Assembly (NCBI GenBank): GCA_002347155.1
Contig: DDXO01000120.1
Location: 17,709-81,708 of the forward strand
Reading direction: 5' to 3'
Length of the DNA: 64,000 nt
Source of the DNA: a candidate division WOR-3 bacterium UBA2258
Lineage (GTDB): Bacteria; Hydrothermota; Tepidihabitantia; Tepidihabitantales; Tepidihabitantaceae
Shown here one piece after another: positions 6,658 to 32,213 of this stretch. The stretch's first letter is position 1; the number at the start of each line of letters is the position of its first letter. Made by a program: the position numbers and the translations under genes. The notes under the pieces are model-generated. The model ran no database searches, was not told where the DNA came from, and was given only the letters and a program-made list of their open reading frames with translations.

Positions 6658-7845
6658 CTACTGCTTGGGGTCGTAGATGGCGCCGAGGAAGAGGACCGAG
6701 CCGGTGACGTCGTCGCGGATGGCGCAGAGGAAGGGATGGTCGCAGACAAAGGAGAACTTGTCCTCAGGCCTCGGCACCGCGGTCATCATCATCTTGACCC
6801 CGGTCACCGCCGCCGCCTCGGTTCCTTCTTCGTTCACCTCGACGAACGTCTTGTGCAGGACGTCGCTGATTGCCGCGGTGGCAGGCGGCACGACCATCTT
6901 CGAGAAGTCGGCGCCGGGAGTGAACGCCAGCCCCATGCCGAGGACCTGGAGCGTCTTGACCAGGTTCTGCTCGAACTCGATCTTGAACCGTGGCAGCACG
7001 ACCGTGCCCTTCTTCTCGGCGAAGCCACTGAAGAGAGAGGAGGGAGAGGAGAGGAGGGAGGAGATCAGCTTCGCGAGGCCGTCCTTCGCGCGCGGCAGGA
7101 AGACGTACATGTTGAGCCGTTCGTCGCCGTAGGGCAGAACCACGGCCTGCATCGCGTCATCTTCCTTGTAGCGGAACTCGTCTTCCCGGTTCATCATCTG
7201 GCGCTGCGCCGCGCCCGCGGCGAGGTGGAACTCGCGCGCCGACGTGAGCTTGGGGTCGAACGCCTCGGTCCAGGTTCCTTTAAAGTAGATGGCGTTGACG
7301 AGGACAAGAAACTCATCGGGCGTCAGCTCGCTGACGATCTCCTTGATGCGGCCGCCCGTGTTCTTCGCCACCCAGTCATTTATGGTAGTGACGGCACTGG
7401 GCCGGCCGAAGTCAAGCGTGGTCACCGACGCCCGGTAGTAGCTGCCGCAGTCGTCGGCGAACTGCTTCCGCAGCATCACGCCTTTGCGCAGCCAGAGCGA
7501 GTTGGCGATGTCGAGCCGCACCCGCTTGTCCGCGCTGACGAGTTCCTCGCGCAGCTTCAGGTTGCCGGCCGCGACCTCGGCCCGGGAGAGCCCGGACACC
7601 TTCATCGCGCCGGCCATTGCCTCCCACGTTGCGCCGGCCGCTCCGTGCGCGGTCATCTGGAGCGCAAGCGCGATGCTCAGGGGCGAAATAAAGACGTTCT
7701 CCCCCGGTCTGGCGTCGGTCACGTAGCTGAAGACCTCGATCCCGAACTTGTTGTCGGCCTCGACCAGTTCCGCGGAACGGATTGCCGCCGGCTGGGCGCC
7801 GGATGCGGCCGCGCAGAAGAGGATGGCTGCGAGCAGTAGACTCAT
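6658..7845 (-). CDS. serpin (serine protease inhibitor) family protein, secreted
   Basis: FISPLSIALALQM, NAIYFKGTW, hinge/RCL EVNEEGTEAAAVTG, FVCDHPFLCAI. A signal-peptide-like N-terminus (MSLLLAAILFCAAASGA) begins at ATG 7845, which is preceded by GGAGG. It contains a GA-microsatellite-encoded insert (SSLLSSPSSLFS). Confidence 0.9.
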   Translation of the reverse strand: MSLLLAAILFCAAASGAQPAAIRSAELVEADNKFGIEVFSYVTDARPGENVFISPLSIALALQMTAHGAAGATWEAMAGAMKVSGLSRAEVAAGNLKLREELVSADKRVRLDIANSLWLRKGVMLRKQFADDCGSYYRASVTTLDFGRPSAVTTINDWVAKNTGGRIKEIVSELTPDEFLVLVNAIYFKGTWTEAFDPKLTSAREFHLAAGAAQRQMMNREDEFRYKEDDAMQAVVLPYGDERLNMYVFLPRAKDGLAKLISSLLSSPSSLFSGFAEKKGTVVLPRFKIEFEQNLVKTLQVLGMGLAFTPGADFSKMVVPPATAAISDVLHKTFVEVNEEGTEAAAVTGVKMMMTAVPRPEDKFSFVCDHPFLCAIRDDVTGSVLFLGAIYDPKQ

Positions 7846-8097
7846 GGTTCCTCCGATTATTCTCAAACAGGCTAGCCGGCTCGTCATTGCTTGTCAAAGA
7901 CAATCTACCTGCGGGCTCGGGAGGGTATTCCGGGAGGGAGGCCGGTGCTCAGGTGACAAGAGGGAAGTGCTCCAGTGCTCCTCACCCCAACCCTCTCCTC
8001 TGAGAGGAGAGGGAGAGCGAAGCGAGGGTGAGAAGGGGACGCAGGAAGAGACCGGAAGCCAGGGGTAGGATGGGCTGGTCAAGCGGTCGGAAAGGGA

Positions 8098-8133
8098 AGT
8101 GGTCGAGTAGCCTAGTGGTCCAGTGGTCCAGTG
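8098..8133. repeat. (AGTGGTC)n-type repeat tract at the 3' flank of tatC
   Basis: aagtggtcgagtagcctagtggtccagtggtccagtg. A related tract at 8817-8853 flanks the 5' side (tctagtggtcaggtggtctagcggtccagtgg), and another sits at 3281-3298. Confidence 0.6.
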
Positions 8134-8810
8134 CGCGGGCGGGCAAGCAGGGAGGCGAGGACGCCCAGCTCGAAGAGAAGAAGCAGCGGGACCGCCATCA
8201 GGGTCTGGCTGAACACGTCGGGCGGGCTCAGGACAGCCGCGACGACGAAAACGAGCACGACGGCAATCCGCTGGTTCTTCATCAGCAGCCGGGGGGTGAC
8301 CACACTCAGCTTGGTGAGGAAGAACATGATTACCGGTAGCTGGAAGATAACGCCGCAGGCGAGCAGGAACGCGCCCACCGTGCCGACGTACTCGCCGATG
8401 GAGAGCATTGCCTGGAGCTTCGGGCTCTGGAAGCTCAGAAGGAACTTCATCGCGACCGGTACGACCACCAGGTAGGAGAATGCGACCCCGGCGACGAACA
8501 GCACCGATGAGACGACCACCGCCGCCGCGATGTACTTGACCTCATGCTTGTACAGCGCGGGCCGGACGAACCGCCAGAACTGATAGAAAATCACCGGCGA
8601 AGCGATGAAAAGACCCGTGACCAGGGCAACTTTGAGCTGGACGACAAAGGCCTCGGCCGGGGCGAGATACACGAGCTTCGGCACCGGACGGGTCAGCAGG
8701 TCGAGCACCCGCTGCGAGACGAAGAACCCCGCGACCGCCGCTACGCCCACGGCGATCAGCGCGTAGAAGATACGTTTGCGGAGCTCTTCGAGATGGTCGA
8801 GGAAGGTCAC
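8112..8810 (-). CDS. tatC: twin-arginine translocase subunit TatC
   Basis: LEELRKR, PAEAFVVQLK, and six TM-like segments typical of TatC. Located downstream of tatA. Confidence 0.9.
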   Translation of the reverse strand: MTFLDHLEELRKRIFYALIAVGVAAVAGFFVSQRVLDLLTRPVPKLVYLAPAEAFVVQLKVALVTGLFIASPVIFYQFWRFVRPALYKHEVKYIAAAVVVSSVLFVAGVAFSYLVVVPVAMKFLLSFQSPKLQAMLSIGEYVGTVGAFLLACGVIFQLPVIMFFLTKLSVVTPRLLMKNQRIAVVLVFVVAAVLSPPDVFSQTLMAVPLLLLFELGVLASLLARPRTGPLDH

Positions 8811-8953: not shown

Positions 8954-9148
8954 TCAGTCCGCCTTCGGCCCTTCGTCTTCCTTGTGGTTCTTCTCGGGTT
9001 CGTTCGTGTCGATGTCCTTCATGCCCTGTTTCAGCTCGCGCACGCCCCGACCGATGGAGCGCATCACCTCGGGTATCCGCTTGGCCCCGAACAGCAGCAG
9101 GACGATGAGGACGATGAGCAGTATTTCCTGCCAGCCTACTCCAAACAT
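8954..9148 (-). CDS. tatA: twin-arginine translocase TatA/E family subunit
   Basis: MFGVGWQEILLIVLIVLLLFGAKRIPEVMRSIGRGVRELKQ is the canonical TatA N-terminal TM plus amphipathic helix. Confidence 0.85.
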   Translation of the reverse strand: MFGVGWQEILLIVLIVLLLFGAKRIPEVMRSIGRGVRELKQGMKDIDTNEPEKNHKEDEGPKAD

Positions 9149-9445
9149 GGGTGGTTACCTCCGGGCAGTTCGAGTTCTTTCACGTCCAGACTATAGGTTC
9201 ATGGCTGCCGCAGGTCAAGCGACTACCGCCCCGGAACCGACATTGCGGCCACGAAAGAAAGACACGAAACCGATGGGTGCAGAATACCCCGATTCCGTTT
9301 CACTCAGTCTTCGTGGCTGTCAATATCGGAATCAGGGTACCGGACAGCGCTTGACCGGGCTGCAAGGCTGCGGGATAATCACAGTGATTGTGAGTGCCGC
9401 ATATCCGCCGGCGTTGTCCAACCTGTCCGGAACCACGGAGGAACA

Positions 9446-10765
9446 TTGAAGGAAGTATCAAGGCGTGATTTTCTGAAGTACGTCGGGGCCGGCGCGCTCG
9501 GGCTCGCCGTCAAACCCGGGCTTTTGTCCGCGCTCGACCGGCGGTTCCCGCCCGCGCTGCTCGCGAGCGACGTGGTCCAGTGCTTCCACGACGACGCGAC
9601 CAGCGGCAGTACCATCAACGAGGCCGTTGTACAGATGATGGTGGACGAGTCGATAATGGCGCTCGCCGGTATCCGCAACGTCGGCGAGGCATGGGAGACT
9701 ATCTTCCCCGGTATCACCGAGACCTCTGTCATCGGCATCAAGGTCAACTGCATCAACTCGCAGCTTCCCACCCACCCGGCAGTCGTGCGCTGCATCTGCA
9801 GCGGACTGGCCCGGATGGACGTCGGCGGCTCCTCGTTCAAGAAGAACAACATCATCATCTGGGACCGGACCAACAGCGAGCTGACCGGCTCGGGCTACAC
9901 GAAGTACACCGGCAGCGACCCGGACACAGTCCGCTGCTTCGGCACCAACGAGTCCGGCGTCGGCTACGACAACGACGTTACCTTCGACGTCTACGGCTCT
10001 ACCCAGCACCCCAGCAAGATTCTGTCCCAGATGGTGGACTACCTGATTGACGCCGCCGTGCTCAAGACCCACAGCCAGGGTGTAATCACCCTGAACATGA
10101 AGAACCACTACGGCTCGGTCAACAGCCCCGGCAGCCTCCAGCACTCAAGCGGCTGCAGCCCGGCGGTTCCGTCGTTGAACCAGCAAATCCGTGACGTCAT
10201 CACGCCGAACAACATTCAGAAGCTCTTCTTCACCGACGGCCTGTTCGGTCTCTACTCCGGCGGGCCGGGCGGCCCGCCCAATTTCAACCCCAAGCTGCTG
10301 CTGATGAGCAGGGACCCGGTCGCCTGCGACAAGCAGGGCCAGAACGTCATCAATGTCGAGCGCGCGAAGCACAGCCTGCCCGCACTGAACGCACCCATGA
10401 TAACAACCGCAGCCGAGCCGCCCTACAGCCTCGGCTCGCTCGACATCAATCTCATCGAACTGAACAACGTTGCCGTCGGCGACTCGGGCCGTCCGGTTCC
10501 CGCTGACGGCGTGTTTGCGGTCTCGCCGGAACCGGTACGGGACCGGGCCACCGTCACGTTCGCGGTGTCACGTCCGGGACCGGTGTCGCTCGATCTCGTT
10601 GACGCCGCGGGCCGAACCAGGGCGCGCCTGTTCGCCGGCACGCTCAGCAAGGGGCGGCACAACGTGGACTGGCATGCCGGCCGGAGCCTGGCCGGCGGGG
10701 CCTACTTCCTCCGGCTGAACAGTGCCGGCGCCGTCAGGGTCCGCAAAGTCCAGGTAGTAAACTAG
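9446..10765 (+). CDS. DUF362 domain protein with Tat signal peptide and C-terminal T9SS (Por) sorting domain
   Basis: N-terminus MKEVSRRDFLKYVGAGALGLA has a twin-arginine motif. There is a DUF362-like core. The C-terminal ~80 aa (...ATVTFAVSRPGPVSLDLVDAAGRTRARLFAGTLSKGRHNVDWHAGRSLAGGAYFLRLNSAGAVRVRKVQVV) matches the T9SS type-A CTD pattern. Start is TTG, with a GGAGGA RBS. Confidence 0.75.
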   Translation: MKEVSRRDFLKYVGAGALGLAVKPGLLSALDRRFPPALLASDVVQCFHDDATSGSTINEAVVQMMVDESIMALAGIRNVGEAWETIFPGITETSVIGIKVNCINSQLPTHPAVVRCICSGLARMDVGGSSFKKNNIIIWDRTNSELTGSGYTKYTGSDPDTVRCFGTNESGVGYDNDVTFDVYGSTQHPSKILSQMVDYLIDAAVLKTHSQGVITLNMKNHYGSVNSPGSLQHSSGCSPAVPSLNQQIRDVITPNNIQKLFFTDGLFGLYSGGPGGPPNFNPKLLLMSRDPVACDKQGQNVINVERAKHSLPALNAPMITTAAEPPYSLGSLDINLIELNNVAVGDSGRPVPADGVFAVSPEPVRDRATVTFAVSRPGPVSLDLVDAAGRTRARLFAGTLSKGRHNVDWHAGRSLAGGAYFLRLNSAGAVRVRKVQVVN

Positions 10766-10776
10766 GAGCAGCAGCC

Positions 10777-11310
10777 ATGAAGCGACTGATGACTTTCTGT
10801 ATCGCCCTGCTCTGCCTTTCCTGCACCGGGCCGACGAACAGGCCGGTCGACGTAGTCACGCTCGTGCCCGGAGACAACGAAATCAGCGGCTGGACCAGAA
10901 GCTCGCCCATGCAGGTGGCCGAGACCGGAACCCAGCTCGAGGCAATGATCGACGGCGAGGCCGTACCCTATGAGGACAATCACTTCGTCAAGTGCGCGTT
11001 CCAGAACTTCTCCGGCGGCATCGGCGGCAGCGCGGTCGAACTCGCCCTCCGTATCTTCGACATGGGCGACACTACCAACGCGAAGAACGTCTACGCTGCG
11101 GTCGCGGCCGGCACCGAGGTGCCGTGGTCCGGCGATAACCCCGGCGTCGAGGCGCGTACCGACGAGAGCTTCCTGTTCGCCTACCGGGTTGAGTTCCGCG
11201 ACGGACGGTTCTATTTCCGCGCCGATATCATGGACAAGTCGACCGCTGCCCAGGATATTGCCAAGCTCTTTGCCCGGAACGTCTCGTCGGCAATCCGGGA
11301 TACCATCTAG
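10777..11310 (+). CDS. hypothetical lipoprotein
   Basis: MKRLMTFCIALLCLSCTG is a signal peptide with a lipobox-like LSC. RBS AGGAGCA. Confidence 0.5.
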   Translation: MKRLMTFCIALLCLSCTGPTNRPVDVVTLVPGDNEISGWTRSSPMQVAETGTQLEAMIDGEAVPYEDNHFVKCAFQNFSGGIGGSAVELALRIFDMGDTTNAKNVYAAVAAGTEVPWSGDNPGVEARTDESFLFAYRVEFRDGRFYFRADIMDKSTAAQDIAKLFARNVSSAIRDTI

Positions 11311-11322
11311 CGGGAGGCGAAG

Positions 11323-12234
11323 GTGAATCGACGCGACTTCATCAAGACCGGTCTCGGGATCGCCGCTGCCGCAATGCTCCCCCGGCGGCTGTTTGGCGCC
11401 GAGCCGAAGCAGCCCGCCGGCTCGGCAGTCGCCGTTGCGCGCGGCGCGCGCACCAAGCTCGCCAAAGGAGCGGTCGACCAGCTCGGCGGAATGGGCAGGT
11501 TTGTACGGCCCGGGGACAAGGTCTGCATCAAACCCAACATCTCGTTCGCCGCGAACAGCGAGTGTGGCGCGACCACGAGCGCGGATGTAGCCAGGCAGGT
11601 TGTGCAGCTCTGCCTCGATGCCGGCGCGGCCCGCGTGGTGCTGTTCGACCACACTATCCAGGAGGCGGCTCTCTGCGTGGAGCGGAGCGGCATCAAGACG
11701 GCAATCGTGGACGAGACCAAGGTCAGCCTGCTTACGCTCACGAAGGAGCGCCAGTTCGCCGACACACCCATTCCTAACGGCAAGGAGCTGAAGTCGGTCA
11801 AGCTCGCCAAGGTCCTGCTCGAGTCCGACAAGTTCATCAATCTGCCCACCGCCAAGTCCCATTCGGCGACCGGCGTGAGCCTCGGCATGAAAGGGCTGCT
11901 GGGGGCCATCTGGGACCGGGGAGCGCTCCACAAGGTCAACCTGCATCAGGCCATCGCCGACCTGGCCTCGGTCGTTCGGCCGGACCTGACCATCATCGAC
12001 GCAACCCGGGCCCTGACCAGCGGCGGACCGGGCGGGCCGGGCAAGACCGTCGGCCTGAACATGGTCATCGCCGGCGCCGACCCGGTCGCGGTCGACTCGT
12101 ACACAGTCGGCATCACCCAGTGGTACAACAAATCGTTCACCGGCAAGGGCGTCAAACACATCGTCGCGGCCGCCGAAATGGGCCTGGGCGAAATCGACAC
12201 CGCGAAGATGAGCATCAAGCAGGTCACAGTCTGA
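11323..12234 (+). CDS. DUF362 domain protein with Tat signal
   Basis: MNRRDFIKTGLGIAAAAMLP (RRxFIK). GDKVCIKPNISF is DUF362-like. GTG start preceded by GGGAGG. Confidence 0.75.
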   Translation: MNRRDFIKTGLGIAAAAMLPRRLFGAEPKQPAGSAVAVARGARTKLAKGAVDQLGGMGRFVRPGDKVCIKPNISFAANSECGATTSADVARQVVQLCLDAGAARVVLFDHTIQEAALCVERSGIKTAIVDETKVSLLTLTKERQFADTPIPNGKELKSVKLAKVLLESDKFINLPTAKSHSATGVSLGMKGLLGAIWDRGALHKVNLHQAIADLASVVRPDLTIIDATRALTSGGPGGPGKTVGLNMVIAGADPVAVDSYTVGITQWYNKSFTGKGVKHIVAAAEMGLGEIDTAKMSIKQVTV

Positions 12235-12262
12235 TTGGCGGCTGCCGCGTGACGATTGCCGC

Positions 12263-13804
12263 ATGAAGACGGACGCGGAAGCCGCACCGCGCCGAGTGAA
12301 GCCCGGCAACGGCCTCCGCCTGCTCCGCCGGCTGATACAACTGGCGTTCCTCCTTATCTTCGTCGTGCTCTTCGCTCGTATCCGCTACGGCCTGTCGCCT
12401 GCCTTCTCCGACGTTTTCTTCCGCCTCGACCCGCTGGTCTTCGTCGTCACCTCGATCGCAACCCGCACGCTCCTCTTGACCGGCCTGCTCTCGCTCGTAG
12501 TCGTCGTCGCTACGCTCCTCTTCGGCCGGTTCTTCTGCGGCTTCGTCTGTCCGCTCGGCACGACCATTGACCTGGCCGGCGCGGTACTCAAACGCCGGAG
12601 CTCTCGGGCAACAGGCTGGCGCCGGGGCAAGTTCTTCACGCTCATCCTGCTTATCGTCGCGGCCGCTGCCGGTGCTTCATTCCTCGGGTTCCTCGACCCG
12701 CTGGCCATCCTTTCGCGCTCGCTCGCGCTCGTCTTCTATCCGGTCACATCGCACTTCGCCGGACTGGTCTCGATCGTGCGGCCGGCGGTCTTCACTGAGA
12801 CTATCCTCGCCCTCGCAACGCTGCTCGTCATCCTCGGGCTCGGCTGCGCTGCCCCGCGCTTCTGGTGCCGGAACCTCTGCCCCCTCGGCGGGCTGCTCGG
12901 GTTCCTGGCCAAGTTCTCTATTCTCAAGTTCTCGTTCCGCGGTGACTGCCGGACTTGCGGGCTGTGCGAAAGAGCCTGCCCGACCGGCGCGATTGACTCC
13001 GCGCACCGGAAGGTCGATGCGGCCGAGTGCATCGGCTGTCTGGCCTGCCTGCACGCCTGTCCGGATCGCGTCATCGCGTACGCGGCAAGTCCCGCGCCGC
13101 AGCCCGTGGACGTCGGCCGCCGCGAGGCACTCGTGGCGCTCGGCTCAGGCCTGGTTGCGGCGCCGCTGGCAAGGTCCGTCGTCCACGCCCGACTGCAGGG
13201 CCGGCTGCTGCGGCCGCCGGGCGCGATTCCGGAACCCGATTTCCTGAACGCCTGCATCCGCTGCGGCCGTTGCATGAAGGCCTGCCCGACCAATGGGCTT
13301 CAGCCGGCCGTCCTGGAATCCGGGTTCGACGGGCTCTGGACGCCGCGCCTGGTACCGCGCATCGGCGCGTGCGAGAAGAACTGCAATCTCTGCGGTCAGG
13401 TCTGCCCGACCGGGGCCATCCGCAACCTGCCGCTCGAGGAGAAGACCTATGCGCGCATCGGCACCGCGGTCGTGGACCGGTCGCGCTGCCTTGCCTGGGA
13501 GCAGAACCGGGCCTGCCTGGTCTGCGACGAAGCCTGCCCCTACAACGCCATCGACTCGCGCAACGAGACGACACTGGGCACAACGCTCGGCCGGCCGTTC
13601 GTAAACGAGGAGGCCTGCGTCGGCTGCGGCCTCTGCGAGTCGCGCTGCCCGGTCGACGGCCCGGCCGCGATCCAGGTCTTCGCGATGGCCGCGGACCGGA
13701 AGAGAACCGGCTGGTACAAGACGCCGGGGAAGGAACGACTCCGCTCCTGCGGTGAAGAACCGCAGGAGGACATCCCCTCCGGCTTCATCCAGGAAGAAAG
13801 CTGA
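12263..13804 (+). CDS. membrane-bound 4Fe-4S polyferredoxin (NapH/MauN/NosR-type 4Fe-4S binding protein)
   Basis: N-terminal TM helices with FFCGFVCPLGT. Multiple CxxCxxCxxxCP motifs: CRTCGLCERACP, CIGCLACLHACP, CIRCGRCMKACP, CNLCGQVCP, CLVCDEACP, CVGCGLCESRCP. Confidence 0.8.
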   Translation: MKTDAEAAPRRVKPGNGLRLLRRLIQLAFLLIFVVLFARIRYGLSPAFSDVFFRLDPLVFVVTSIATRTLLLTGLLSLVVVVATLLFGRFFCGFVCPLGTTIDLAGAVLKRRSSRATGWRRGKFFTLILLIVAAAAGASFLGFLDPLAILSRSLALVFYPVTSHFAGLVSIVRPAVFTETILALATLLVILGLGCAAPRFWCRNLCPLGGLLGFLAKFSILKFSFRGDCRTCGLCERACPTGAIDSAHRKVDAAECIGCLACLHACPDRVIAYAASPAPQPVDVGRREALVALGSGLVAAPLARSVVHARLQGRLLRPPGAIPEPDFLNACIRCGRCMKACPTNGLQPAVLESGFDGLWTPRLVPRIGACEKNCNLCGQVCPTGAIRNLPLEEKTYARIGTAVVDRSRCLAWEQNRACLVCDEACPYNAIDSRNETTLGTTLGRPFVNEEACVGCGLCESRCPVDGPAAIQVFAMAADRKRTGWYKTPGKERLRSCGEEPQEDIPSGFIQEES

Positions 13805-14034
13805 CCGCGCTCCTCCTCAGCCTTGTCGCGGCGACCGCACAGGGCACGGCCGGCCGGCCGATAGTCCTCGACGGAGTCACCGATGCGTTTGCCTCCGAGT
13901 TCGTCTTCTTCGCGACCGAATACGGCATCTACACCTTCAACCGGACCTCGGCGACCTGGAGCCGTATCACCACGGCCAGCGGCCTGCCCTCGAACCGTGC
14001 ACTCGCGCTCGGGCTCGACGAGGGCGTACTCTGG

Positions 14035-17000
14035 GTGGCGACCGATTCCGGCCTTGCCTCGGCCGACGTAAGGGTCAACGACTGGCAGACCTACGACCTG
14101 CGCGGTACCGTGCGCGCGCTCGCGTTCGATGACCGCTATGTCTGGGCCGGCGGCGACTCCGGCCTCGCGCGGTTCGACAAGTTCTCGGAGACCTGGCAGC
14201 AGCGCTCGGAGGCACCGGTTCTCGCCCTGCTGGCTGCGGCGGAACGCGTCTGGATTGCCACCGCTACCGGCGTGCTCAGCTACGACCAGAAGTTCGACCG
14301 AATCGACGCGACGCCGGCGCCGGCCGACTCCTATACCCGCATAGTCGATACGCGGAATTCAATCTGGTTTGCAGGCCGGGTGCGGCTCGCCGGCTACCGG
14401 AAGGCCACGGCTTCGTGGACCGAATACAGCGCGATCCCCGCCGCCGACTTCTCGGTGCTCGGCGATTCCATCCTCTTCGCTGAAGACGGCGGACCGCTGG
14501 TCTATGATCCCGGCTCGGACCGCTGGGGTAAGCCGCAGCTCATCGGAATGCCCGACGTCGTGACCGATGCTTTCCTCTCGTCGTCGGAGATGCTCTTCGC
14601 GTCCGACCAGGGGCTCGTCATCATCGACACCAGAGAGAACACCCGGCAGGTCTGGACCAGGAGCAATGGCCTCGCTGATGACAGGCTCGTGCGGGTCTAC
14701 TGCGACCAGCGGTTCATCTACGCCCTGACCGCAGGCGGAATTCAGTACTTCGACCGCCAGCAGAAGCTCTGGAAACAGGAGGGTTTTGTACTGCCGCAGG
14801 CCCGCAGGAGGCAGCTTGCCTGGCTCGACGACGCGGGCGCCCACCTGGGTATCGTCCCCGACACCGACATCCGTCTGTCCGGCCGCGCCTACTACTCCCA
14901 GTCGCGGGTGTTCTCTGGCAGCAGCGGCACAACCAGCGACTTCGAGAACATCGGCCTGAACCTTCTGGCCCGGCATCGGTCCGGCCGCGCCCTCTCGCTC
15001 TTCTACGACGACTCGGACCGCGACCTCGTCGCCTATGGCCTCGGGTACCGCGGAGTGGGTCCCGACGTGCTCCACCGTGCGAATGCGGGGAAGCTCAAGT
15101 CCGAGTACTCGGAATTTGATCTCATACCGCCGTTCTCGACCCTCGGCGCGAATGCGCGTCTCATTCTTCCCCAATCCCCGGCCGCTAACCCCCGGGCCCT
15201 TTCGCTTGACCTGCAGGGCGGCCGCATCGAGTCGGCCCTGCGCAGCGACTTCTTCACGGGACGCTCGGTCGACAAGGAAGTCAGGCGGCCCGACATCGAC
15301 TACGCCCGCGGCGTCTTATACCGCCTGCCTTCACCAGCCGCCTCGCAGTGGGACACGGTGTTCGCCGACGACCGCATCCCGACAACGAACACCCCGAAGA
15401 CTCGCGTCGGTTGGACGGTCGGCGACGTCACCGGCGACTTCGACCCGCTCCTGCGCGGCTCCGACTACTTCGTTGACCGGGCCGGTAGCGTCATCTATTT
15501 CGTCGGCGCGCGCAAGCCCGGTGACATACTCGTGTTTGTCGGCAACGCGGGTGCACAGGTTCTCCAGTCCGAGTCCGTAGCCGGGAATGCGCTCCGGAAC
15601 ACGTACTTCTTCGGCCCGGACATCACGCCCGGGTCGTTCGAACTCCAAATCACCGATACCACGGGCGCGGTCCACGCCCTTTCCGGATTCGGCATCGACG
15701 ACGACAACGACGGCCGCGTGGACCCGGCCCATCTGGACCACGACCTCGGCTTTCTCTCTTTCCCTTCGCCCCTGGTCGCTGACTCGCTGGCCCCTTCCGT
15801 CTACTCGCTCCGCGCCACCTACCGCTCGCAATCGACCTTCTACAGCCTGACTCACAAGCCGGTGGTCAAGAACAGCGAAACCGTCGTCGTTGACGGTGCG
15901 GTGATGGCCCGCGGCTCCGACTATGTGCTGGACTACACCTCGGGCATCCTGCTGTTCCTGAAGAAAGACGTGGTCACCGACTACAGCCAGATTGACTTGC
16001 GCTACTCCACGGTCGAGCGGCCCGATTCGTGGACGACCAGGGACCTGCTCTTCTCCGCCCAGCCCGGCTTCACCCTTCTCGACTCGTCGTTCTCGGCTCA
16101 GCTTGCTCCCGGCTTCACGCGAGTGGCGGGCGAGAACATCGTCCACCTCTCCGGCCGGGCCGAGGCCGGAGCCGGCACGGACAAGAGCATCAGGTTTGTG
16201 CCCCAGTTCGCGGTCCGCTGTCCGACCGGGGCCGCTGCGGCCAACAGCGACAAGGCGCTGGCCCAGGACTACTCGTTGAGCGGCAACTTCGGCGTGTTCA
16301 GCGCCGCGGCGCAGTACCGCGGGTTCGGCCCGGGTTTCGAGGAGTTCGGGGCCGGAGAACGGCGCTACGGCGTGCTCCGCCATGCGGCCGCGTTCTCGGC
16401 CGGGGCCGAACCCTTGTCGCATCTCCGCGTCGACGGCACGGCTAGGCGTGACTACGTCGCCGACCCGCTTGCGCCGGACGCGGCGCTGCTGACTGCCGAC
16501 TACTTGTCCGGCAAACTCAGCTACGTCAACCCGAAGTACCCGAGCGGATTCGTGCTCTGCGCCAACGACCGCCTGCCGGACGGGAACCGGCTCCGGGCCA
16601 AAGCGAACGCCGGCTACGAGTTCACACTCCTCAAATCCAGGCTCAAGCTCAACGGCATCGTCCAGAACAGCTCACTTGAGCACTTGAGCACTAGTGCACT
16701 AGAGCACTCTCTTGAGTACATCGCCGAGGCGACCTTCGCCCTGCCCTTCCCGGTCCAGGGCAGCATCCGTTATCGAAACAACGGCCTCTCAAGCGACGGT
16801 ACGCAAACCCGCCGCGAGGACGAACTCCGCGGCCAGCTCAACATCGACGTCGTCCCGGGGTTATACTACACCGGATCCTACAACCTCCTGACCGGGATGA
16901 GTTCGCTCGGCGCCACCCGGGACCTTGAACTTGAGGGCTACCTGTACAACAACCTGCAGGTCGCACCCGGCCGCTGGTGGTCGAAGCTGTCGGTCGTCAA

Positions 17001-17742
17001 TCTCTCGGTCGGAACCGGCTCCAACTTCGACGAGTACGTCCGGAACCTCGTCTCCAACTTCATCCCGCCGCTGCTTCTCATCCGGCCGCTGGACAACCGT
17101 AGTTCATCATTCGACGTTTCCTCCGCGAGTGACCTGCGGACGCTGTACGGTAACGTCCAACTGCAGCCCGCTGCCGGTCTGACTCTCCACGCCAAACGGA
17201 CGATGAGCAACACCGGTACGGCCTACTACGGCCTGCCCGAGCTGAAGCCCTCTACCGATGACGAACTGAAGGCGGAGTATGAGCCGGGCCGGCTCGGACT
17301 CTTCACCGCGCAGTTCAATTCGCGGGCTGCGCCCGGCCTGCCGAAGACGACGCGCAGGAACGCCTATTTCGAGTGGAACATGCCCTGGTCGCAACTCCTC
17401 CGCACGCGGCTCACCGCCACCTACGGATTCGACGACGAGTACTACGGGCCGACGCTGACCCTGCGCCCGCGGAGTGTCGCGCCGAACGTCGAGGCCCTTT
17501 TCCAGTTCAGCGCCCGCTCTTACGCAACCCTTGGCTTGGGAGCAGGCTGGGAACAACGCACCTTCTCTGCCGCGGGCTCAGGCTGGATTGCCGACCCCTG
17601 GAAGGTCTCGCTCCGCCCGGCCGCAGGATTGAACCTGAACCTGCTCCGCTTCCTCTACGTCCAGCTCACCTACCAGTCCGGCCTGGTGCTGTCCGGAACG
17701 TCTACGCACACTCTGTCCGGCCGCCTTACTGCTCAGTTCTAG
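14035..17742 (+). CDS. large secreted/outer-membrane protein: N-terminal beta-propeller-like repeats, C-terminal beta-barrel-like region ending in Phe
   Basis: A 1235 aa ORF from GTG 14035. The in-frame coding-like sequence with a signal-peptide-like stretch (LTALLLSLVAATAQG...) extends upstream to 13801 with no canonical start (see findings). The protein has repeated G..W..T..GL..FD motifs. The C-terminus ...LTAQF is OMP-like. Confidence 0.65.
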   Translation: MATDSGLASADVRVNDWQTYDLRGTVRALAFDDRYVWAGGDSGLARFDKFSETWQQRSEAPVLALLAAAERVWIATATGVLSYDQKFDRIDATPAPADSYTRIVDTRNSIWFAGRVRLAGYRKATASWTEYSAIPAADFSVLGDSILFAEDGGPLVYDPGSDRWGKPQLIGMPDVVTDAFLSSSEMLFASDQGLVIIDTRENTRQVWTRSNGLADDRLVRVYCDQRFIYALTAGGIQYFDRQQKLWKQEGFVLPQARRRQLAWLDDAGAHLGIVPDTDIRLSGRAYYSQSRVFSGSSGTTSDFENIGLNLLARHRSGRALSLFYDDSDRDLVAYGLGYRGVGPDVLHRANAGKLKSEYSEFDLIPPFSTLGANARLILPQSPAANPRALSLDLQGGRIESALRSDFFTGRSVDKEVRRPDIDYARGVLYRLPSPAASQWDTVFADDRIPTTNTPKTRVGWTVGDVTGDFDPLLRGSDYFVDRAGSVIYFVGARKPGDILVFVGNAGAQVLQSESVAGNALRNTYFFGPDITPGSFELQITDTTGAVHALSGFGIDDDNDGRVDPAHLDHDLGFLSFPSPLVADSLAPSVYSLRATYRSQSTFYSLTHKPVVKNSETVVVDGAVMARGSDYVLDYTSGILLFLKKDVVTDYSQIDLRYSTVERPDSWTTRDLLFSAQPGFTLLDSSFSAQLAPGFTRVAGENIVHLSGRAEAGAGTDKSIRFVPQFAVRCPTGAAAANSDKALAQDYSLSGNFGVFSAAAQYRGFGPGFEEFGAGERRYGVLRHAAAFSAGAEPLSHLRVDGTARRDYVADPLAPDAALLTADYLSGKLSYVNPKYPSGFVLCANDRLPDGNRLRAKANAGYEFTLLKSRLKLNGIVQNSSLEHLSTSALEHSLEYIAEATFALPFPVQGSIRYRNNGLSSDGTQTRREDELRGQLNIDVVPGLYYTGSYNLLTGMSSLGATRDLELEGYLYNNLQVAPGRWWSKLSVVNLSVGTGSNFDEYVRNLVSNFIPPLLLIRPLDNRSSSFDVSSASDLRTLYGNVQLQPAAGLTLHAKRTMSNTGTAYYGLPELKPSTDDELKAEYEPGRLGLFTAQFNSRAAPGLPKTTRRNAYFEWNMPWSQLLRTRLTATYGFDDEYYGPTLTLRPRSVAPNVEALFQFSARSYATLGLGAGWEQRTFSAAGSGWIADPWKVSLRPAAGLNLNLLRFLYVQLTYQSGLVLSGTSTHTLSGRLTAQF

Positions 17743-23280: not shown

Positions 23281-24552
23281 CTATGGCGTACGGGATTCGT
23301 GCGGGTGGGGTCGGGAACGCTCGCGCCTGTCGGCAGCTCGCCGGTCCGAAGCCGCCCTGAGTTGTGCGTTTTTCGTCGCCACGGTAGGCCGAACCCCGAC
23401 GCGCAGCCGGTCGAATCTGGAATACCGAACCTGTGGTGCAAAACCTCTCTGTCGCGGAGTTGCTCTGCCTTCGTCACCTGTGCGCTGATCGCGTGTTTCG
23501 TCTGGCTGGGCAATCCGCGCGCGCGCTTCCTGAGTCCTCACCACGGTCAGGTGTCCCAGACAGACAAGTAGTTGGAGGATGACGATGGCAGTCCTGCCGG
23601 CCGGGCCGACACGCAGATAGAATAGCGCCAGCGCCAACGAAACAAGGCCCAGACCGACATAAAAAAGCGTGACCCGCAGGTGGCTCCAGCCAGCCTGCAG
23701 GAGTCTCTCGTAGAGGTGTGTGCGGTGAGCCTGCCAGAACTTCTCGCCACGGAAGATGCGTCGCAGCAGCGTGTAGCTTGTATCGAACAGGAAGCTGCTG
23801 TAGAGAATGATGAAAAACACCATCGGTACCGACTGCCTGCCGGGCGCGGCCAGCCGGATTGCCAGCACCGACAGCACAAACCCTATTGTGAGACTGCCGA
23901 CGCCACCCATGAACACCTGGGCCGGAGGGAAGTTGTACCACAGGAACCCGAGGCAGGCCGCGGTAACGGCCACTGCAATCACGCCCTCGTACGGATGACC
24001 CGTGGCAAAGGCCGCCGCAGCGACGCCTGCGGAGTACACGACAGCCAGACTGTTCGCCAGCCCATCAGCGCCGTCGATGAAGTTGAAGAAATTCACCAGA
24101 CCCGTAATCCAGAGCACTGTCAGAGGAACTGCGGCCCACAGAAGCACGACACCGGACCCCCAAGGCAGTGAGAACTCCTGCAACACCATGCCTGCGCCAA
24201 CGACCAGCATGGCGGCTCCGGCCTGTAGGAGCAGTCGCAAGTAGGTGGGCGGGTTGCGGAAGTCGTCCCAAAGACCGACGGCTGCGACAAGCGCCGTGGC
24301 GACGGCGAAGAGGATGAGAGCCCCGCGTGGCTCCCCCTGGCTGCGCGCGCCAAGCATCAGAAGCAGGGCCAGGAAGAGCGATAGCGCAAGCCCGACACCG
24401 CCAGACGTCGCCGTTGGAATGTCGTGAGAACTGCGGCAATTGGGAACATCTATCGGTGCACCTCTGCCTACTCTCCCCAGAACAAGACGCGCACCTACGG
24501 TAGACACCGCAAGCGAAAACAAGCTCAGAACCAGTACTTTCAGTTCAAACAC
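23281..24552 (-). CDS. polyprenyl-phosphate sugar-1-phosphate transferase (glycosyltransferase family 4; WecA/MraY-like)
   Basis: Multi-TM protein with NFFNFIDGADGL (MraY/WecA signature). Confidence 0.85.
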   Translation of the reverse strand: MFELKVLVLSLFSLAVSTVGARLVLGRVGRGAPIDVPNCRSSHDIPTATSGGVGLALSLFLALLLMLGARSQGEPRGALILFAVATALVAAVGLWDDFRNPPTYLRLLLQAGAAMLVVGAGMVLQEFSLPWGSGVVLLWAAVPLTVLWITGLVNFFNFIDGADGLANSLAVVYSAGVAAAAFATGHPYEGVIAVAVTAACLGFLWYNFPPAQVFMGGVGSLTIGFVLSVLAIRLAAPGRQSVPMVFFIILYSSFLFDTSYTLLRRIFRGEKFWQAHRTHLYERLLQAGWSHLRVTLFYVGLGLVSLALALFYLRVGPAGRTAIVILQLLVCLGHLTVVRTQEARARIAQPDETRDQRTGDEGRATPRQRGFAPQVRYSRFDRLRVGVRPTVATKNAQLRAASDRRAADRRERSRPHPHESRTP

Positions 24553-25928: not shown

Positions 25929-26231
25929 ATGACTCTACCTGACATACCGATACCCAATCCTGCGGCAGTTCAGGAAGTGGGGGCTGACGGCTGGACCCTG
26001 CTGGTGAACCCGGACACCACCGGTGCGATGGCCGTGAACCAGACCGGGGCCCTTGTCTGGAAGCTGGTAGATGGCCGGCGTACGGCCGATGAGATTATTG
26101 CCGCGGTCCGAAGCCGCTTTCCGGATGCGCCGGACAACGTGGCTGAAGACGTGCGGGCACTTCTGACCAAGCTGGCCGACGAAGGGTTCGTCGGCCGGGA
26201 GATACCGCTTAAGGGGACACCTCATGAGTGA
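25929..26231 (+). CDS. PqqD-family peptide chaperone (RRE), type A, copy 1
   Basis: ...GWTLLVNPDTTGAMAVNQTGALVWKLVDGRRTADEIIAAVRSRFPDAPDNVAEDVRALLTKLADEGFV is the PqqD/RRE pattern. ~70% identical to 26498-26827. Confidence 0.8.
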   Translation: MTLPDIPIPNPAAVQEVGADGWTLLVNPDTTGAMAVNQTGALVWKLVDGRRTADEIIAAVRSRFPDAPDNVAEDVRALLTKLADEGFVGREIPLKGTPHE

Positions 26232-26508
26232 GAAGACCTATCGAGCAAACGAAGTCGTTTCTTGCGTTGACGAGGGCGAAGATGGGGCCATGCTCTATAA
26301 CCCGGACAAGGACGACACGGTCATCCTGAATCCCTCCGGCCGCAGCATCTGGGCCCTGCTGTCCGCCCCCCGAACTATTGACGAGATTGCAGGTCATCTC
26401 GTATCCGCCTATCCGAGCATCACGCGAGAGCAGGCACGGAAGGACGCGGAGCAGTTCCTAGAGTCTCTTGTCCCCGATTTCGCAACTCCCTCAACCGATG
26501 AGCACTGA
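26224..26508 (+). CDS. PqqD-family peptide chaperone, type B, copy 1
   Basis: ...AMLYNPDKDDTVILNPSGRSIWALLSAPRTIDEIAGHLVSAYPSITREQARKDAEQFLESL. Paralogue of 27060-27353. Overlaps its neighbours by 8 and 11 nt. Confidence 0.75.
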   Translation: MSEKTYRANEVVSCVDEGEDGAMLYNPDKDDTVILNPSGRSIWALLSAPRTIDEIAGHLVSAYPSITREQARKDAEQFLESLVPDFATPSTDEH

Positions 26509-26827
26509 GCCACTGCCAATCCCCGACCTGACCCTGCCCGACCCGCCGATGCCGAATCCATCCGCCGTCCGCGACGACGGGGAAGACGGCTGGACGCTCC
26601 TGGTGAATCCCGACACCGCCGGTGCAATGGCTGTGAATGCGACCGGCGTGCTCGTCTGGAGCCTCGTAGACGGCAAGCGTACTATCGAACAGATTGTTAC
26701 CGCGGTGAAGGACCGGTTTCCGGATGCGCCGGACACGGTGAGAGACGACGTGCTCGCATACCTGACGAAACTGACCGAGGAAGGCTTCATTGGTCAGGAA
26801 ATACCATTTCTAGACACGAATCGCTAG
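26498..26827 (+). CDS. PqqD-family peptide chaperone, type A, copy 2
   Basis: ATG 26498 overlaps the upstream stop (ATGAGCACTGA). GWTLLVNPDTAGAMAVNATGVLVWSLVDGKRTIEQIVTAVKDRFPDAPDTV... Confidence 0.8.
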   Translation: MSTEPLPIPDLTLPDPPMPNPSAVRDDGEDGWTLLVNPDTAGAMAVNATGVLVWSLVDGKRTIEQIVTAVKDRFPDAPDTVRDDVLAYLTKLTEEGFIGQEIPFLDTNR

Positions 26828-27059
26828 GAGCGCCGGGAGGCCATGGGAAGAGGGAAGAGGTGACATTGAGACCTTCCGCTGTCGGCGTACTCCGTGGTTT
26901 ACTAATGAGAGCAGGAAATGTTTGTCATTCTGAGGCGTTCGACGCCGAAGAATCTGACAACAAGCGAAGGGCTCAGGGTGACAGGGTATAGGGATACTGA
27001 GAGTGACATCAAGAACTGTCCAGTGTTTCATGCTCTCCGTAATATAAGGAGCTAGACCA

Positions 27060-27353
27060 ATGAACAAGACTACATATCGAGTGAACGAAGTCGTGTCCTG
27101 CGCCGACGAGGACGAAGACGGAGCGATGCTCTACAATCCGGACAAGGATGAAACGGTGTTGCTGAATCCCACCGGCCGCAGCATCTGGGCTCTGCTTGGT
27201 GCCCCTCGGACCCTCGACGAGGTCGCCGACCACCTGACGGCTACCTATCCGGGCGTGACAAGTGAACAGGCTCTGCAGGATGCCGACAAGTTCATCCAAT
27301 CGCTGCTGCCGGATTTCGTACTATCCGAAGGTGGGGACGCTGATGCCCGCTAA
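27060..27353 (+). CDS. PqqD-family peptide chaperone, type B, copy 2
   Basis: MNKTTYRVNEVVSCADEDEDGAMLYNPDKDETVLLNPTGRSIWALLGAPRTLDEVADHLTATYPGVT... RBS AAGGAG. Confidence 0.75.
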   Translation: MNKTTYRVNEVVSCADEDEDGAMLYNPDKDETVLLNPTGRSIWALLGAPRTLDEVADHLTATYPGVTSEQALQDADKFIQSLLPDFVLSEGGDADAR

Positions 27354-28521
27354 GAAAGCGCGAAAGGCGAAGGTAAACCCGGCACCTCAGCCGATGCCGG
27401 ACATGACCGTGCCGCCGCCGGGTCTCATGCGATTTCCCAAGTCGGTTGACCTTTCGCTCACTGGACGCTGCAACCTCAAGTGCCGCTACTGCTTCTACGC
27501 CGACGAGATGACCGCGCTCAATGACATGCCGGCGGAGCGCTGGCACGCCTTGTTCGAAGAACTCAGCAGGCTTGGTGTTCACAATGTCTGCCTCTCGGGC
27601 GGTGAGGTCTTCACCCGCCCCGACCTGTTTGAGCTGATCGATGGTGTAATCGCGAACAAAATGCGCTACAACATACTCACCAACGGCACGCTCATCACCG
27701 AGGACACGCTGGAGGAATTCGCGAAGGGCAAGCGCCGTCTGAGGCTGAGTTCAGTCCAGGTTTCAATAGATGGGTCCTGCGCCGAGATTCATGACAAGAG
27801 CCGGCCCCCGAAGAGCTTCGACCGGGCCCTGCGCGGCCTCCGTCTGCTCAAGCAGGCCAAGTTCCCGGTGACCGTGCGCGTGACCGTCAACCGGGCTAAC
27901 GTGAACGACCTGCCCAACATCGCCCGACTGCTGCTCGAGGATGTGGGTCTTGGCGCGTTCAGCACGAACGAGGCTGACCAGATGGGTTCTGCCCGGTGCT
28001 ATGGCGACAGCACAGTCCTCACTCGCTCCGAGCGAAAGCAGGCGATGGAGACTCTGGCGAGGCTGAACAAGCAATACGGAGGCAGAATCAGCGCCACTGC
28101 CGGACCACTTGCCACGGCTACAAACTTCGCCCAGATTGAGGAGGCAATCGCGCAGGGGAAGACCGGCATGCCAGGCCGGGGTACCCTGTGTTCCTGCGGC
28201 GGGGTTTTCCAGAAACTGGCTGTACTCCACGACGGAACAATCGTCCCCTGCAATATGCTGCCCAAGCTCGTCATGGGCGTCTACGGTCACCAGTCACTCG
28301 CCGAGGTCTGGCGCAACAGCCCTGCGGTCAATGTCGTTCGCTACCGGCGCCAGATACCAATACTGTCGTTGCCCGAGTGCAAGGACTGCTCGTACGCCGG
28401 TTTCTGCACTGGCGGCTGCCCGGCCTCGGTCATGGCCAAGTTCGACAGGTTGAACGCCCGTGACCCTCTAGTCTGCTACCGCATCTTCAAAGGAGAGGAG
28501 AAACAAAGTGTCGATATGTGA
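27343..28521 (+). CDS. radical SAM / SPASM-domain peptide-modifying enzyme 1
   Basis: CNLKCRYC (CxxxCxxC) rSAM cluster. C-terminal SPASM cysteines CSCGG...PCN...CKDCSYAGFCTGGCP. Start ATG 27343 overlaps the upstream stop. Confidence 0.9.
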   Translation: MPAKKARKAKVNPAPQPMPDMTVPPPGLMRFPKSVDLSLTGRCNLKCRYCFYADEMTALNDMPAERWHALFEELSRLGVHNVCLSGGEVFTRPDLFELIDGVIANKMRYNILTNGTLITEDTLEEFAKGKRRLRLSSVQVSIDGSCAEIHDKSRPPKSFDRALRGLRLLKQAKFPVTVRVTVNRANVNDLPNIARLLLEDVGLGAFSTNEADQMGSARCYGDSTVLTRSERKQAMETLARLNKQYGGRISATAGPLATATNFAQIEEAIAQGKTGMPGRGTLCSCGGVFQKLAVLHDGTIVPCNMLPKLVMGVYGHQSLAEVWRNSPAVNVVRYRRQIPILSLPECKDCSYAGFCTGGCPASVMAKFDRLNARDPLVCYRIFKGEEKQSVDM

Positions 28522-29686: not shown

Positions 29687-29840
29687 ATGGATTCCGCGCC
29701 AGTGGAACACGAAAACGGAATGAAACGTGGACATGTGGAATCCGTCACGCATTCATTTAGTGCCCCTGGCCTCGGCTGCCCCTGTCCGACAGTGCGTGCT
29801 TTCGTGGCTCCAGTGTCGGATTCAGGAGAACGGGTTTTGC

Positions 29841-29870
29841 TTGACATGGAGGGCAGGGGGGGTGTAGAAT
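29841..29870 (+). promoter_or_regulatory. sigma70-like promoter upstream of precursor A (TTGACA-N18-TAGAAT)
   Basis: ttgacatggagggcagggggggtgtagaat, ~60 nt upstream of the precursor A start codon. This is the only consensus-like -35/-10 pair I saw in the cluster. Confidence 0.4.
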
Positions 29871-29929
29871 GATGTCGCCTACCAACCAGAGAGGGCTACA
29901 GGTCCGATAAAGTACTTAGGAGGTTAGTG

Positions 29930-30190: not shown

Positions 30191-30198
30191 CAGAAGCC

Positions 30199-32202: not shown

Positions 32203-32213
32203 GGAGGTACGAC

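Follow-up and report, generated by a model that had tools for sequence, protein, structure and literature searches.

Polyferredoxins that carry NapH and NapG in a single chain are inserted into the membrane jointly by the Sec and twin-arginine translocation (Tat) pathways, as was validated experimentally by Tooke et al. 2017 (eLife; PMC5449189), who predicted seven clusters for the family, three cytoplasmic and four periplasmic, and gave examples from Latescibacteria, Caldithrix, Nitrospirae and a deltaproteobacterium. Type IX secretion system (T9SS) cargo is regarded as Sec-dependent: a review table lists Sec only for the T9SS and Sec/Tat for type II secretion (T2SS) (PMC8047123), and the predictor T9GPred drops candidates with a Tat signal, since none among the 102 experimentally known T9SS cargos has one (PMC10515386). 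Most reviews call the T9SS Bacteroidota-specific. The LarA superfamily (DUF2088) shares Pfam clan CL0471 with DUF362; in LarA1, H174 is a catalytic histidine, K184 tethers the nickel-pincer nucleotide (NPN) and H200 is the nickel ligand (PMC11770544). Here a five-gene operon of the candidate division WOR-3 bacterium UBA2258 is described, in which a DUF362 protein, DUF362_a, carries both a Tat signal and a T9SS-type C-terminal domain (CTD) and is encoded beside a second Tat-signal DUF362 protein, DUF362_b, and a polytopic polyferredoxin (PFD). The window analysed is a stretch of 64,000 nucleotides, positions 17,709 to 81,708 of the forward strand of contig DDXO01000120.1 (assembly GCA_002347155.1); coordinates are those of the window unless a related contig (L number) is named.

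The operon and its Tat signals

A preliminary description of the interval 9446-13804 had named two Tat-exported DUF362 proteins and a membrane polyferredoxin. These genes are present, in an interval of four co-directional genes rather than three; a DUF6599 gene (10777-11310) had been overlooked, as had the downstream gene for a large outer-membrane protein (13801-17742). Together they form a five-gene envelope operon at 9446-17742, in the order DUF362_a-CTD, DUF6599 lipoprotein, DUF362_b, PFD and an outer-membrane protein of about 1313 aa. The nearest named relatives are from candidate division WOR-3. The features of the locus are as follows.

8112-8810, minus strand: tatC (PF00902, 236 bits; TIGR00945, 211.6 bits, cut-off 132.7)
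8954-9148, minus strand: tatA, 64 aa (PF02416 on the called gene in the identical contigs L001-L003), translation MFGVGWQEILLIVLIVLLLFGAKRIPE...
9351-9379, plus strand: sigma-70-like promoter match upstream of the operon, TTGACC-17-GATAAT, 10/12 (weak evidence, consensus scan only)
9446-10765, plus strand: DUF362_a, Tat-signal DUF362 protein with a type-A CTD by the matches given below, 439 aa; TTG start, GGAGGA ribosome-binding site
9446-9556, plus strand: Tat signal peptide region of DUF362_a, residues 1-37; twin-arginine (RR) codons 9461-9466; TIGR01409, 21.9 bits
9731-10336, plus strand: DUF362 catalytic domain of DUF362_a, residues 96-297, with K99-x-N and H209-x9-K219
10514-10762, plus strand: T9SS type-A-like CTD of DUF362_a, residues 357-439 (sub-threshold TIGR04183 score, orthologues, predicted beta-sandwich)
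10777-11310, plus strand: DUF6599 protein, probable lipoprotein, 177 aa (PF20244, 37.6 bits)
11323-12234, plus strand: DUF362_b, Tat-signal periplasmic DUF362 protein, 303 aa (PF04015, PF10518); RR codons 11329-11334
12263-13804, plus strand: PFD, 513 aa; NapH-like part 12320-13084, RR 13118-13123, fifth transmembrane helix (TM5) 13127-13183, NapG-like part 13145-13720
13801-17742, plus strand: large outer-membrane protein, about 1313 aa, CTG start; signal peptide, propeller, barrel of about 40 strands, C-terminal ...TAQF

Local hidden Markov model (HMM) scans were run on stop-to-stop open reading frames (ORFs), and all structural inferences refer to predicted models. The consensus scan also gave a minus-strand mirror promoter site at 9218-9190, facing tatA.

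Both DUF362 proteins match PF04015 above the Pfam cut-off of 24, DUF362_a at 58.6 bits and DUF362_b at 157.3 bits, and the twin-arginine motifs first noticed by eye on the two proteins are recognised by Tat models. TIGR01409 scores 21.9 bits on DUF362_a (cut-off 16.7), which has SRRDFLK at residues 5-11, and PF10518 (TAT_signal) scores 23.3 bits on DUF362_b (cut-off 22.7), which has NRRDFIK; the two N-termini, SRRDFLKYVGAGALGLAV and NRRDFIKTGLGIAAAAML, agree with the pattern S/T-R-R-x-F-L-K followed by a moderately hydrophobic h-region. Across 27 DUF362_a orthologues of 55-100% identity, S5, R6, R7 and F9 are invariant while the region behind SRRxF varies in sequence and length, as is typical of signal peptides, and residues 1-37 have a pLDDT (predicted local distance difference test) below 50 in the AlphaFold model. 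The strict RR pattern was present in 17/19 close GTDB orthologues with a complete N-terminus. When 1.84 billion cluster representatives were searched for DUF362_b, 5551 relatives were returned. An N-terminal RR motif occurs in 127 of the 150 best representatives (50% identity clusters), the remainder being mostly fragment-like, and the family profile aligns at its N-terminus with the Tat signal peptide of CueO in PDB 9e04, indicating that Tat export is the rule for the DUF362_b subfamily. The Tat machinery itself is represented by tatA and tatC, divergently upstream of the operon, so that the locus encodes three predicted Tat-dependent products beside tatAC. This adjacency is confined to close relatives. 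In L007 (8379-9817), a 23S_rRNA_IVP-family gene lies between tatA and tatC. The pairing of Tat-signal DUF362 proteins with a polyferredoxin was thus confirmed by family models, by conservation among orthologues and by the adjacent tat genes.

The C-terminal domain of DUF362_a and the outer-membrane genes

A T9SS sorting domain had also been assigned to the end of DUF362_a. Orthologue matches and the predicted fold agree with this assignment, while the TIGR04183 score of the protein itself lies below the curated cut-off. At E<=0.01, TIGR04183 was matched by 22/27 orthologues (best 2.9e-10), and PF18962 is precomputed on several of them. In the AlphaFold model, residues 357-437 form a seven-strand beta-sandwich of C-terminal immunoglobulin (Ig)-like fold behind a disordered linker, and the best structural fits are the CTDs of mirolase, PorU, PorZ and NucA, all solved T9SS CTDs. 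On this domain the generic Ig-like fold model FlgD_ig reaches a score similar to that of TIGR04183.

The CTD is present on 22/22 close DUF362_a orthologues in GTDB genomes (WOR-3, TA06 and Stahlbacteria). Tat signal and CTD are again joined on DUF362 in Zixibacteria, and a Chitinivibrionales DUF362 protein (L052 777-2078, minus strand) has a Tat signal of 22.9 bits with a CHU_C-type T9SS domain of 27.6 bits; the combination has therefore arisen or persisted in more than one phylum. A further Chitinivibrionales DUF362 protein with a Tat signal and a T9SS-type C-terminal domain is encoded at L054 7211-8551 (minus strand). An HMM built from the DUF362_a CTD found the same domain at the end of unrelated proteins in WOR-3 and related contigs, and those with readable N-termini have ordinary Sec-type signal peptides with no RR. 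In these lineages the CTD therefore acts like a sorting signal, with DUF362_a as the exceptional case in which it is joined to Tat in place of the Sec signal peptide of T9SS cargo. The judgement that Tat and a T9SS-type CTD are an unusual pair held up: both are conserved on one polypeptide, in a secretion system treated as Sec-dependent in the sources cited above, and a literature search for Tat-dependent T9SS cargo returned only general reviews. DUF362_a would be directed to the outer membrane by its CTD, most likely to the cell surface, after folded export by Tat. In some WOR-3 genomes the CTD-bearing DUF362 gene is present as two or three paralogues in tandem (L007 5555-11320; L013; L022; L029).

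The DUF6599 protein has a signal peptide ending in a cysteine that is kept in four orthologues (LSC, LAC, LLAC, VSC). It is syntenic in WOR-3, Fibrobacterota, Zixibacteria, Spirochaetota and Thermodesulfobacteriota, the last with Pfam scores down to 1e-45 to 1e-52, and a literature search on DUF6599 returned nothing specific. A type-A-like CTD ends DUF6599 itself in L043 6572-7945 (Zixibacteria), where there are apparently two DUF6599-like repeats, and in L029 2435-3247.

For the large outer-membrane protein, gene callers place the start at 14035. Upstream of that position the frame stays open as far as a CTG at 13801, which shares bases with the TGA stop of PFD (aag-CTG-A), and this start gives 1313 aa, restoring 78 residues with the signal peptide and the first propeller blades common to all homologues. 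Judged by the sequence, CTG 13801 is most likely the true start, and TTGA, CTGA or similar junctions between the two genes in related genomes suggest a translational coupling that tolerates a non-canonical start. The N-terminal part is a Reg_prop/PorZ-like beta-propeller (PDB 4a2l, 8e-16; PF21544 in 12/28 orthologues). The confident model of the C-terminal 986 residues shows some 40 long beta-strands and an inserted domain (pLDDT 88, predicted template modelling score (pTM) 0.78); the structural neighbours are outer-membrane barrels, none of them a close relative. The protein was considered as a SprA/Sov translocon and rejected, as it lacks a full-length match to TIGR04189 (cut-off 200 bits) and the 36-strand barrel. 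Its gene is always downstream of PFD in WOR-3 and TA06 loci, and a divergent collinear orthologue ending in ...ATALF lies upstream in Fibrobacterota; the propeller-barrel protein thus occurs where DUF362_a is anchored to the outer membrane. In L013 a second propeller-barrel gene fragment follows the first.

Polyferredoxin, its DUF362 partner and the LarA-like fold

PFD, previously described as NapH/MauN-like, is NapH-like in its N-terminal part, and the whole protein is a NapH-NapG fusion. Residues 20-274 match NF007013 (84.6 bits; equivalog cut-off 234) and residues 295-486 match NF007012 (111 bits; equivalog cut-off 269). Seven CxxCxxCxxxCP clusters had been counted; seven can stand as a number of clusters, and the literal motif occurs four times (C229, C256, C331 and C452), the others being the variants Cx3Cx2Cx3CP at C370 and Cx8Cx2Cx3CP at C409 and the CxxxCP half-motifs at C92 and C202. 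C229 and C256 lie in a cytoplasmic loop, and C331, C370, C409 and C452 in the C-terminal domain. Immediately before the last hydrophobic segment, TM5 (289-307), stands GRRE (residues 285-288). TM5 has the lowest Kyte-Doolittle value among the distinct predicted transmembrane helices (1.71) and is followed by RSVVHARLQGR, with its R/H/R/R charges. The RR and all cysteine motifs are kept in four divergent orthologues. NapH and NapG in a single chain, and an RR before a weak last helix followed by positive charges, are both hallmarks of dual Sec/Tat insertion, and by its sequence PFD belongs to the family of Tooke et al. No napA, napB or napC gene was found among the window proteins scanned.

GTDB species genomes were scanned with a 14-sequence DUF362_b alignment, which gave 548 confirmed matches; the best-scoring 80 loci were kept and scanned with HMMs built in this analysis. 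A full-length PFD gene lies directly beside DUF362_b in 76/80 loci, usually overlapping it; the four loci without such a neighbour are cut off by contig edges. The pair occurs in about ten phyla: WOR-3, TA06, Stahlbacteria, Rhodothermales, Eisenbacteria, Fibrobacterota/Chitinivibrionales, Latescibacterota, Zixibacteria, Spirochaetota and Thermodesulfobacteriota/Syntrophaceae. The suggested co-occurrence of DUF362, CTD and polyferredoxin was accordingly found for DUF362 and PFD, the constant partner being the CTD-less DUF362_b and not DUF362_a. The complete five-gene operon is present in about 20 WOR-3, TA06 and Stahlbacteria species genomes, and the same five genes recur in WOR-3 contigs with differing flanks. 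Complete WOR-3 chromosomes with the operon are CP070680.1, CP070664.1, CP070795.1 and CP070705.1.

DUF6599 is a frequent third member beside PFD and DUF362_b, and the fourth member varies with the lineage. It is a Tat DUF362_a with a CTD in WOR-3, TA06, Stahlbacteria and Zixibacteria, a soluble Tat DUF362_a in Rhodothermales and Spirochaetota, a Tat lipoprotein DUF362_a (RRKFL...SC or GC) in Fibrobacterota, and a Tat-signal aldo/keto reductase with a C-terminal 4Fe-4S dicluster domain in Thermodesulfobacteriota. Aldo/keto reductases normally use cytoplasmic NAD(P)H, and a periplasmic one is odd. Outer-membrane targeting of the accessory tier thus recurs in different forms, as a CTD on DUF362_a, as Tat plus lipobox on DUF362_a and as a CTD on DUF6599, and the CTD-bearing DUF362_a is a lineage-specific, outer-membrane-directed add-on. 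The Fibrobacterota DUF362_a proteins (L040 3819-9298; L042, L047, L048) have an extra 150 or so residues, with the propeller-barrel gene upstream. In Thermodesulfobacteriota/Syntrophaceae the gene order is DUF6599, aldo/keto reductase, Tat-DUF362, PFD (L065 7465-12519; L070 7603-12531; L091 7574-12534). A related WOR-3 contig (L092) has a DUF362-Fer4 (4Fe-4S) fusion gene at 23486-23903, about 10 kb downstream of the operon, so that a cytoplasmic, ferredoxin-fused form of the family is present in the same genome.

The DUF362 domain is predicted to have a LarA-type fold, the top structural neighbours of the model all being LarA-family racemases/epimerases, at a sequence identity of 9-13% to the LarA superfamily. 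In 64 diverse DUF362_b homologues, N72, K178, H180, H203, D258 and G235-P236 are invariant, K190 is conserved in >=90% and K70 nearly invariant. Alignment by hhalign, for which the LarA1 sequence was checked against 5HUQ, placed AKSH180-x9-K190 of DUF362_b on ESH174-x9-K184 of LarA1. Among the LarA1 residues for NPN binding and catalysis (R75, H108, H174, K184 and H200), the H174/K184 pair was aligned, if weakly, and no counterpart of R75 or H108 was established; H203 of DUF362_b is invariant. DUF362_a keeps K99-x-N and H209-x9-K219. PDB sequence and profile searches with either DUF362 protein gave no solved relative and no LarA, only the CTD and the Tat signal peptide being matched, and membership of LarA/DUF2088 was not apparent at the sequence level. 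DUF362_a and DUF362_b have no cysteine motif in common, and a common Fe-S cluster is therefore unlikely. The domain probably folds around a cofactor made in the cytoplasm, and such pre-loading would explain its use of Tat.

Proposed function and comparison with described systems

The locus can be read as a periplasmic redox core of PFD and DUF362_b, to which WOR-3 adds an outer-membrane tier with a DUF362_a that passes through Tat and then follows its CTD, a reading to which we give an even chance. We infer it from the architectures, signals, folds and cross-phylum synteny shown above. The core would be a two-part redox unit, widespread in anaerobes, of the fused PFD and the soluble Tat-exported DUF362_b. 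The first four PFD helices would be inserted by Sec, and TM5 with the cluster-loaded NapG-like domain by Tat; by way of some seven [4Fe-4S] clusters, PFD may then carry electrons between the periplasm and either the quinol pool or the cytoplasmic face, with DUF362_b as its putative periplasmic catalytic partner. In WOR-3 the outer-membrane tier would consist of the DUF6599 lipoprotein, the giant beta-barrel with its PorZ-like propeller, and DUF362_a, which would be exported folded by Tat and then sent to the outer membrane by the T9SS-type CTD.

An extracytoplasmic or surface electron-transfer module had been proposed at the outset. An envelope-spanning module is supported by synteny, with PFD in the inner membrane, a DUF362 protein in the periplasm, and the lipoprotein, the barrel and an anchored DUF362 protein at the outer membrane. 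A surface electron-transfer chain is not supported as stated, because the operon encodes no haem or Fe-S carrier across the outer membrane. The tiers are linked through a diffusing substrate or product, or else DUF362_a needs no external electrons, as in LarA-type chemistry. A porin-cytochrome conduit of the MtrCAB type was ruled out, no multihaem CxxCH motifs being paired with the barrel.

Several results weigh against the proposed redox core and outer-membrane tier. No haem (CxxCH) or Fe-S motif is present in DUF362_a, DUF6599 or the barrel. The NapG and NapH scores of PFD lie far below the equivalog cut-offs, so that quinol dehydrogenase activity is an analogy. The hhalign match of DUF362_b to LarA1 is weak (E 0.075), the DUF362_a profile gave no useful alignment to LarA1, none of the LarA-family Pfam models matched the DUF362 proteins at E<=0.01, and no literature report of a tested DUF362 function, substrate or cofactor was found. 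DUF362_a itself scores 18.0 bits (E 0.002) with TIGR04183, under the 23-bit cut-off. No T9SS core family was matched among the scanned window proteins (most of the larger ORFs, not all), and a literature search returned no paper documenting a T9SS in WOR-3. A C25 peptidase near the operon in L092, considered as a PorU sortase, matched no NCBIfam model at E<=0.01, and nothing identifies it as PorU.

Three other explanations were weighed. It is highly improbable that the RR motifs are incidental, with both DUF362 proteins plain Sec substrates and the Tat-CTD pairing an annotation artefact: the Tat scores barely exceed their thresholds (21.9 against 16.7 and 23.3 against 22.7) and the strict RR regular expression fails in 2/19 complete DUF362_a orthologues, but SRRxF is fixed in 27 orthologues amid an otherwise varying signal region, RR recurs in 127/150 distant DUF362_b representatives, matches extend to the whole S/T-R-R-x-F-L-K consensus and to the Tat signal peptide of CueO, tatAC adjoin the operon, and Sec-type CTD proteins from the same lineages have no RR. 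More weight, at odds still clearly unfavourable, is given to a DUF362_a that stays in the periplasm without any T9SS, its Ig-like domain serving as a docking module on the PorZ-like propeller, the barrel or another partner. The absence of T9SS core genes from the scanned window proteins and inspected flanks, the restriction of the T9SS to Bacteroidota in most reviews, and the sub-threshold TIGR04183 score with an equivalent FlgD_ig score would all fit. So would the barrel, which accompanies both the CTD-anchored DUF362_a of WOR-3 and the lipid-anchored one of Fibrobacterota, and the plain soluble Tat DUF362_a of Spirochaetota and Rhodothermales, which makes a periplasmic location compatible with function. 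Like true cargo, however, DUF362_a has its domain at the extreme C-terminus behind a disordered linker, and the closest structures are bona fide T9SS CTDs, one of them solved within a translocon complex. The same CTD type behaves as a sorting signal on unrelated Sec-signal WOR-3 proteins, and the lipoprotein anchor that replaces it in Fibrobacterota, with the CTD on DUF6599 in Zixibacteria, points to outer-membrane targeting.

The remaining explanation concerns chemistry rather than location: the DUF362 proteins would be LarA-like isomerases or epimerases with internal hydride shuttling, not electron-transfer enzymes, and PFD would only keep their cofactor active or reduced. They would act on extracellular or periplasmic hydroxy-acids or sugar derivatives: a substrate would be converted outside the cell by DUF362_a, and its product imported by the barrel and processed further by DUF362_b. 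This accords with top structural neighbours that are all LarA-family racemases/epimerases sharing the His/Lys motif, with an outer-membrane tier that has no redox carrier, and with the fourth gene of Thermodesulfobacteriota, a Tat aldo/keto reductase from a family acting on sugars and carbonyls. Extracellular DUF362-CBM9-dockerin proteins of lignocellulose-degrading communities (PMC5742341) also suggest carbohydrate-related substrates for which no electron supply is needed. The aldo/keto reductase nevertheless has a 4Fe-4S dicluster domain of its own, many DUF362 proteins are fused to 4Fe-4S domains (Pfam description), as is the DUF362-Fer4 gene of L092, and the near-obligate, often overlapping pairing of DUF362_b with PFD in about ten phyla argues for stoichiometric electron transfer rather than occasional repair. 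We consider the isomerase explanation distinctly unlikely, and the two-tier redox reading is retained.

The earlier interpretation is, as a whole, partly supported. The kind of polyferredoxin is already known and Tat-exported DUF362 proteins are common; the pairing of Tat with a CTD, the DUF362_b-PFD-DUF6599 module and the giant barrel appear undescribed. Tentatively, and against the balance of probability, the locus may represent a new Tat-then-CTD outer-membrane route for a folded, cofactor-loaded enzyme together with a cytochrome-free, envelope-spanning LarA-like redox system in WOR-3 and relatives. A divergent T9SS might serve as the machine in such a route; alternatively, the barrel of about 40 strands encoded in the operon, which has a PorZ-like propeller and a SprA-like segment, might itself act as a minimal translocon, or attachment device, dedicated to this route. 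Sec dependence is taken for granted for T9SS cargo, and candidates that have a Tat signal are thrown out by prediction pipelines; a conserved Tat-plus-CTD family makes a case for asking whether T9SS-type transport takes Tat-delivered, cofactor-loaded proteins as the T2SS does. In bioenergetics, NapH-NapG polyferredoxins were formerly just a membrane-insertion curiosity; their pairing with DUF362, and often DUF6599, defines a periplasmic redox module and sets DUF362, a large domain of unknown function, in a context open to testing. The LarA-like fold and the His/Lys motif point to a cofactor that is assembled beforehand, tethered and at work outside the cytoplasm. For outer-membrane biology, the operon supplies a barrel of about 40 strands that is modelled with confidence and has no near structural relative.

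Other genes of the window lie outside this system. A bacterial serpin gene at 6658-7887 (minus strand; PF00079, 352 bits) adjoins the tat genes and is also present in L001-L003 and L007. Upstream of it, 980-2984 includes a SAD/SRA-HNH endonuclease (2187-2984), and the matching contig L001 (1465-2237) has a PemK toxin with small neighbour genes; the patch looks like a small defence or mobile element. Third-position GC is about 0.81-0.86 for genes at about 8-23 kb and about 0.6-0.77 elsewhere in the window, for which expression level or a different origin are possibilities. A long polysaccharide/O-antigen-type cluster at 41236-63018 (minus strand) contains GT1, GT2 and GT4 glycosyltransferases, a FemAB/GNAT-like protein, a polysaccharide deacetylase, a DegT aminotransferase and a Wzt-type ABC ATPase. 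A cluster resembling those for ribosomally synthesised and post-translationally modified peptides (RiPPs), in which no precursor peptide was identified, spans 25929-37055:

25929-26827: three tandem PqqD-family genes
27262-29686: two radical SAM enzymes, the first with a SPASM domain
32983-34845: ABC exporter
34891-35685: S26-like peptidase
35733-37055: NTP_transf_5 protein

Compared with the polyferredoxins of Tooke et al., PFD has the same four NapH-type helices with two CX3CP motifs, the two cytoplasmic [4Fe-4S] motifs, an RR before a weakly hydrophobic TM5 followed by positive charges, and the periplasmic NapG-like four-cluster domain. That paper settled biogenesis and not partners, whereas here a near-invariant Tat-DUF362 partner, often with DUF6599, is found. 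The NapGH quinol dehydrogenase of E. coli and Wolinella has the same two modules and cluster motifs and is the likely model for electron transfer from quinol to a periplasmic enzyme (PMC5449189); in PFD the modules are fused in one chain, the operon has no haem motif, and the electrons would go to a DUF362 protein instead of a molybdoenzyme or cytochrome. DUF362_a resembles T9SS type-A cargo (gingipains, mirolase, NucA) in its C-terminal seven-strand Ig-like domain behind a linker, in family-level TIGR04183/PF18962 matches and in having solved T9SS CTDs as its closest structures, and differs in a Tat rather than Sec signal, in a score below the curated cut-off and in its occurrence in WOR-3, where a T9SS is not documented. 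With the NPN enzymes of the LarA superfamily the DUF362 proteins share a predicted fold and, by a weak alignment, a LarA-like His-x9-Lys...His constellation, but they leave the cytoplasm and are coupled with Fe-S partners. In function, the nearest analogue is the extracellular DmsEFAB dimethyl sulfoxide reductase of Shewanella (PMC9048795), which receives its cofactor in the cytoplasm. There, the T2SS carries out the outer-membrane step and electrons pass the barrel by way of the decahaem DmsE, whereas the WOR-3 operon has a T9SS-type CTD and no cytochromes, and the surface location known for the Shewanella enzyme is proposed here by inference; in both, a cofactor-loaded enzyme, a beta-barrel and an inner-membrane quinol dehydrogenase, in WOR-3 the putative PFD, are encoded by one cluster.

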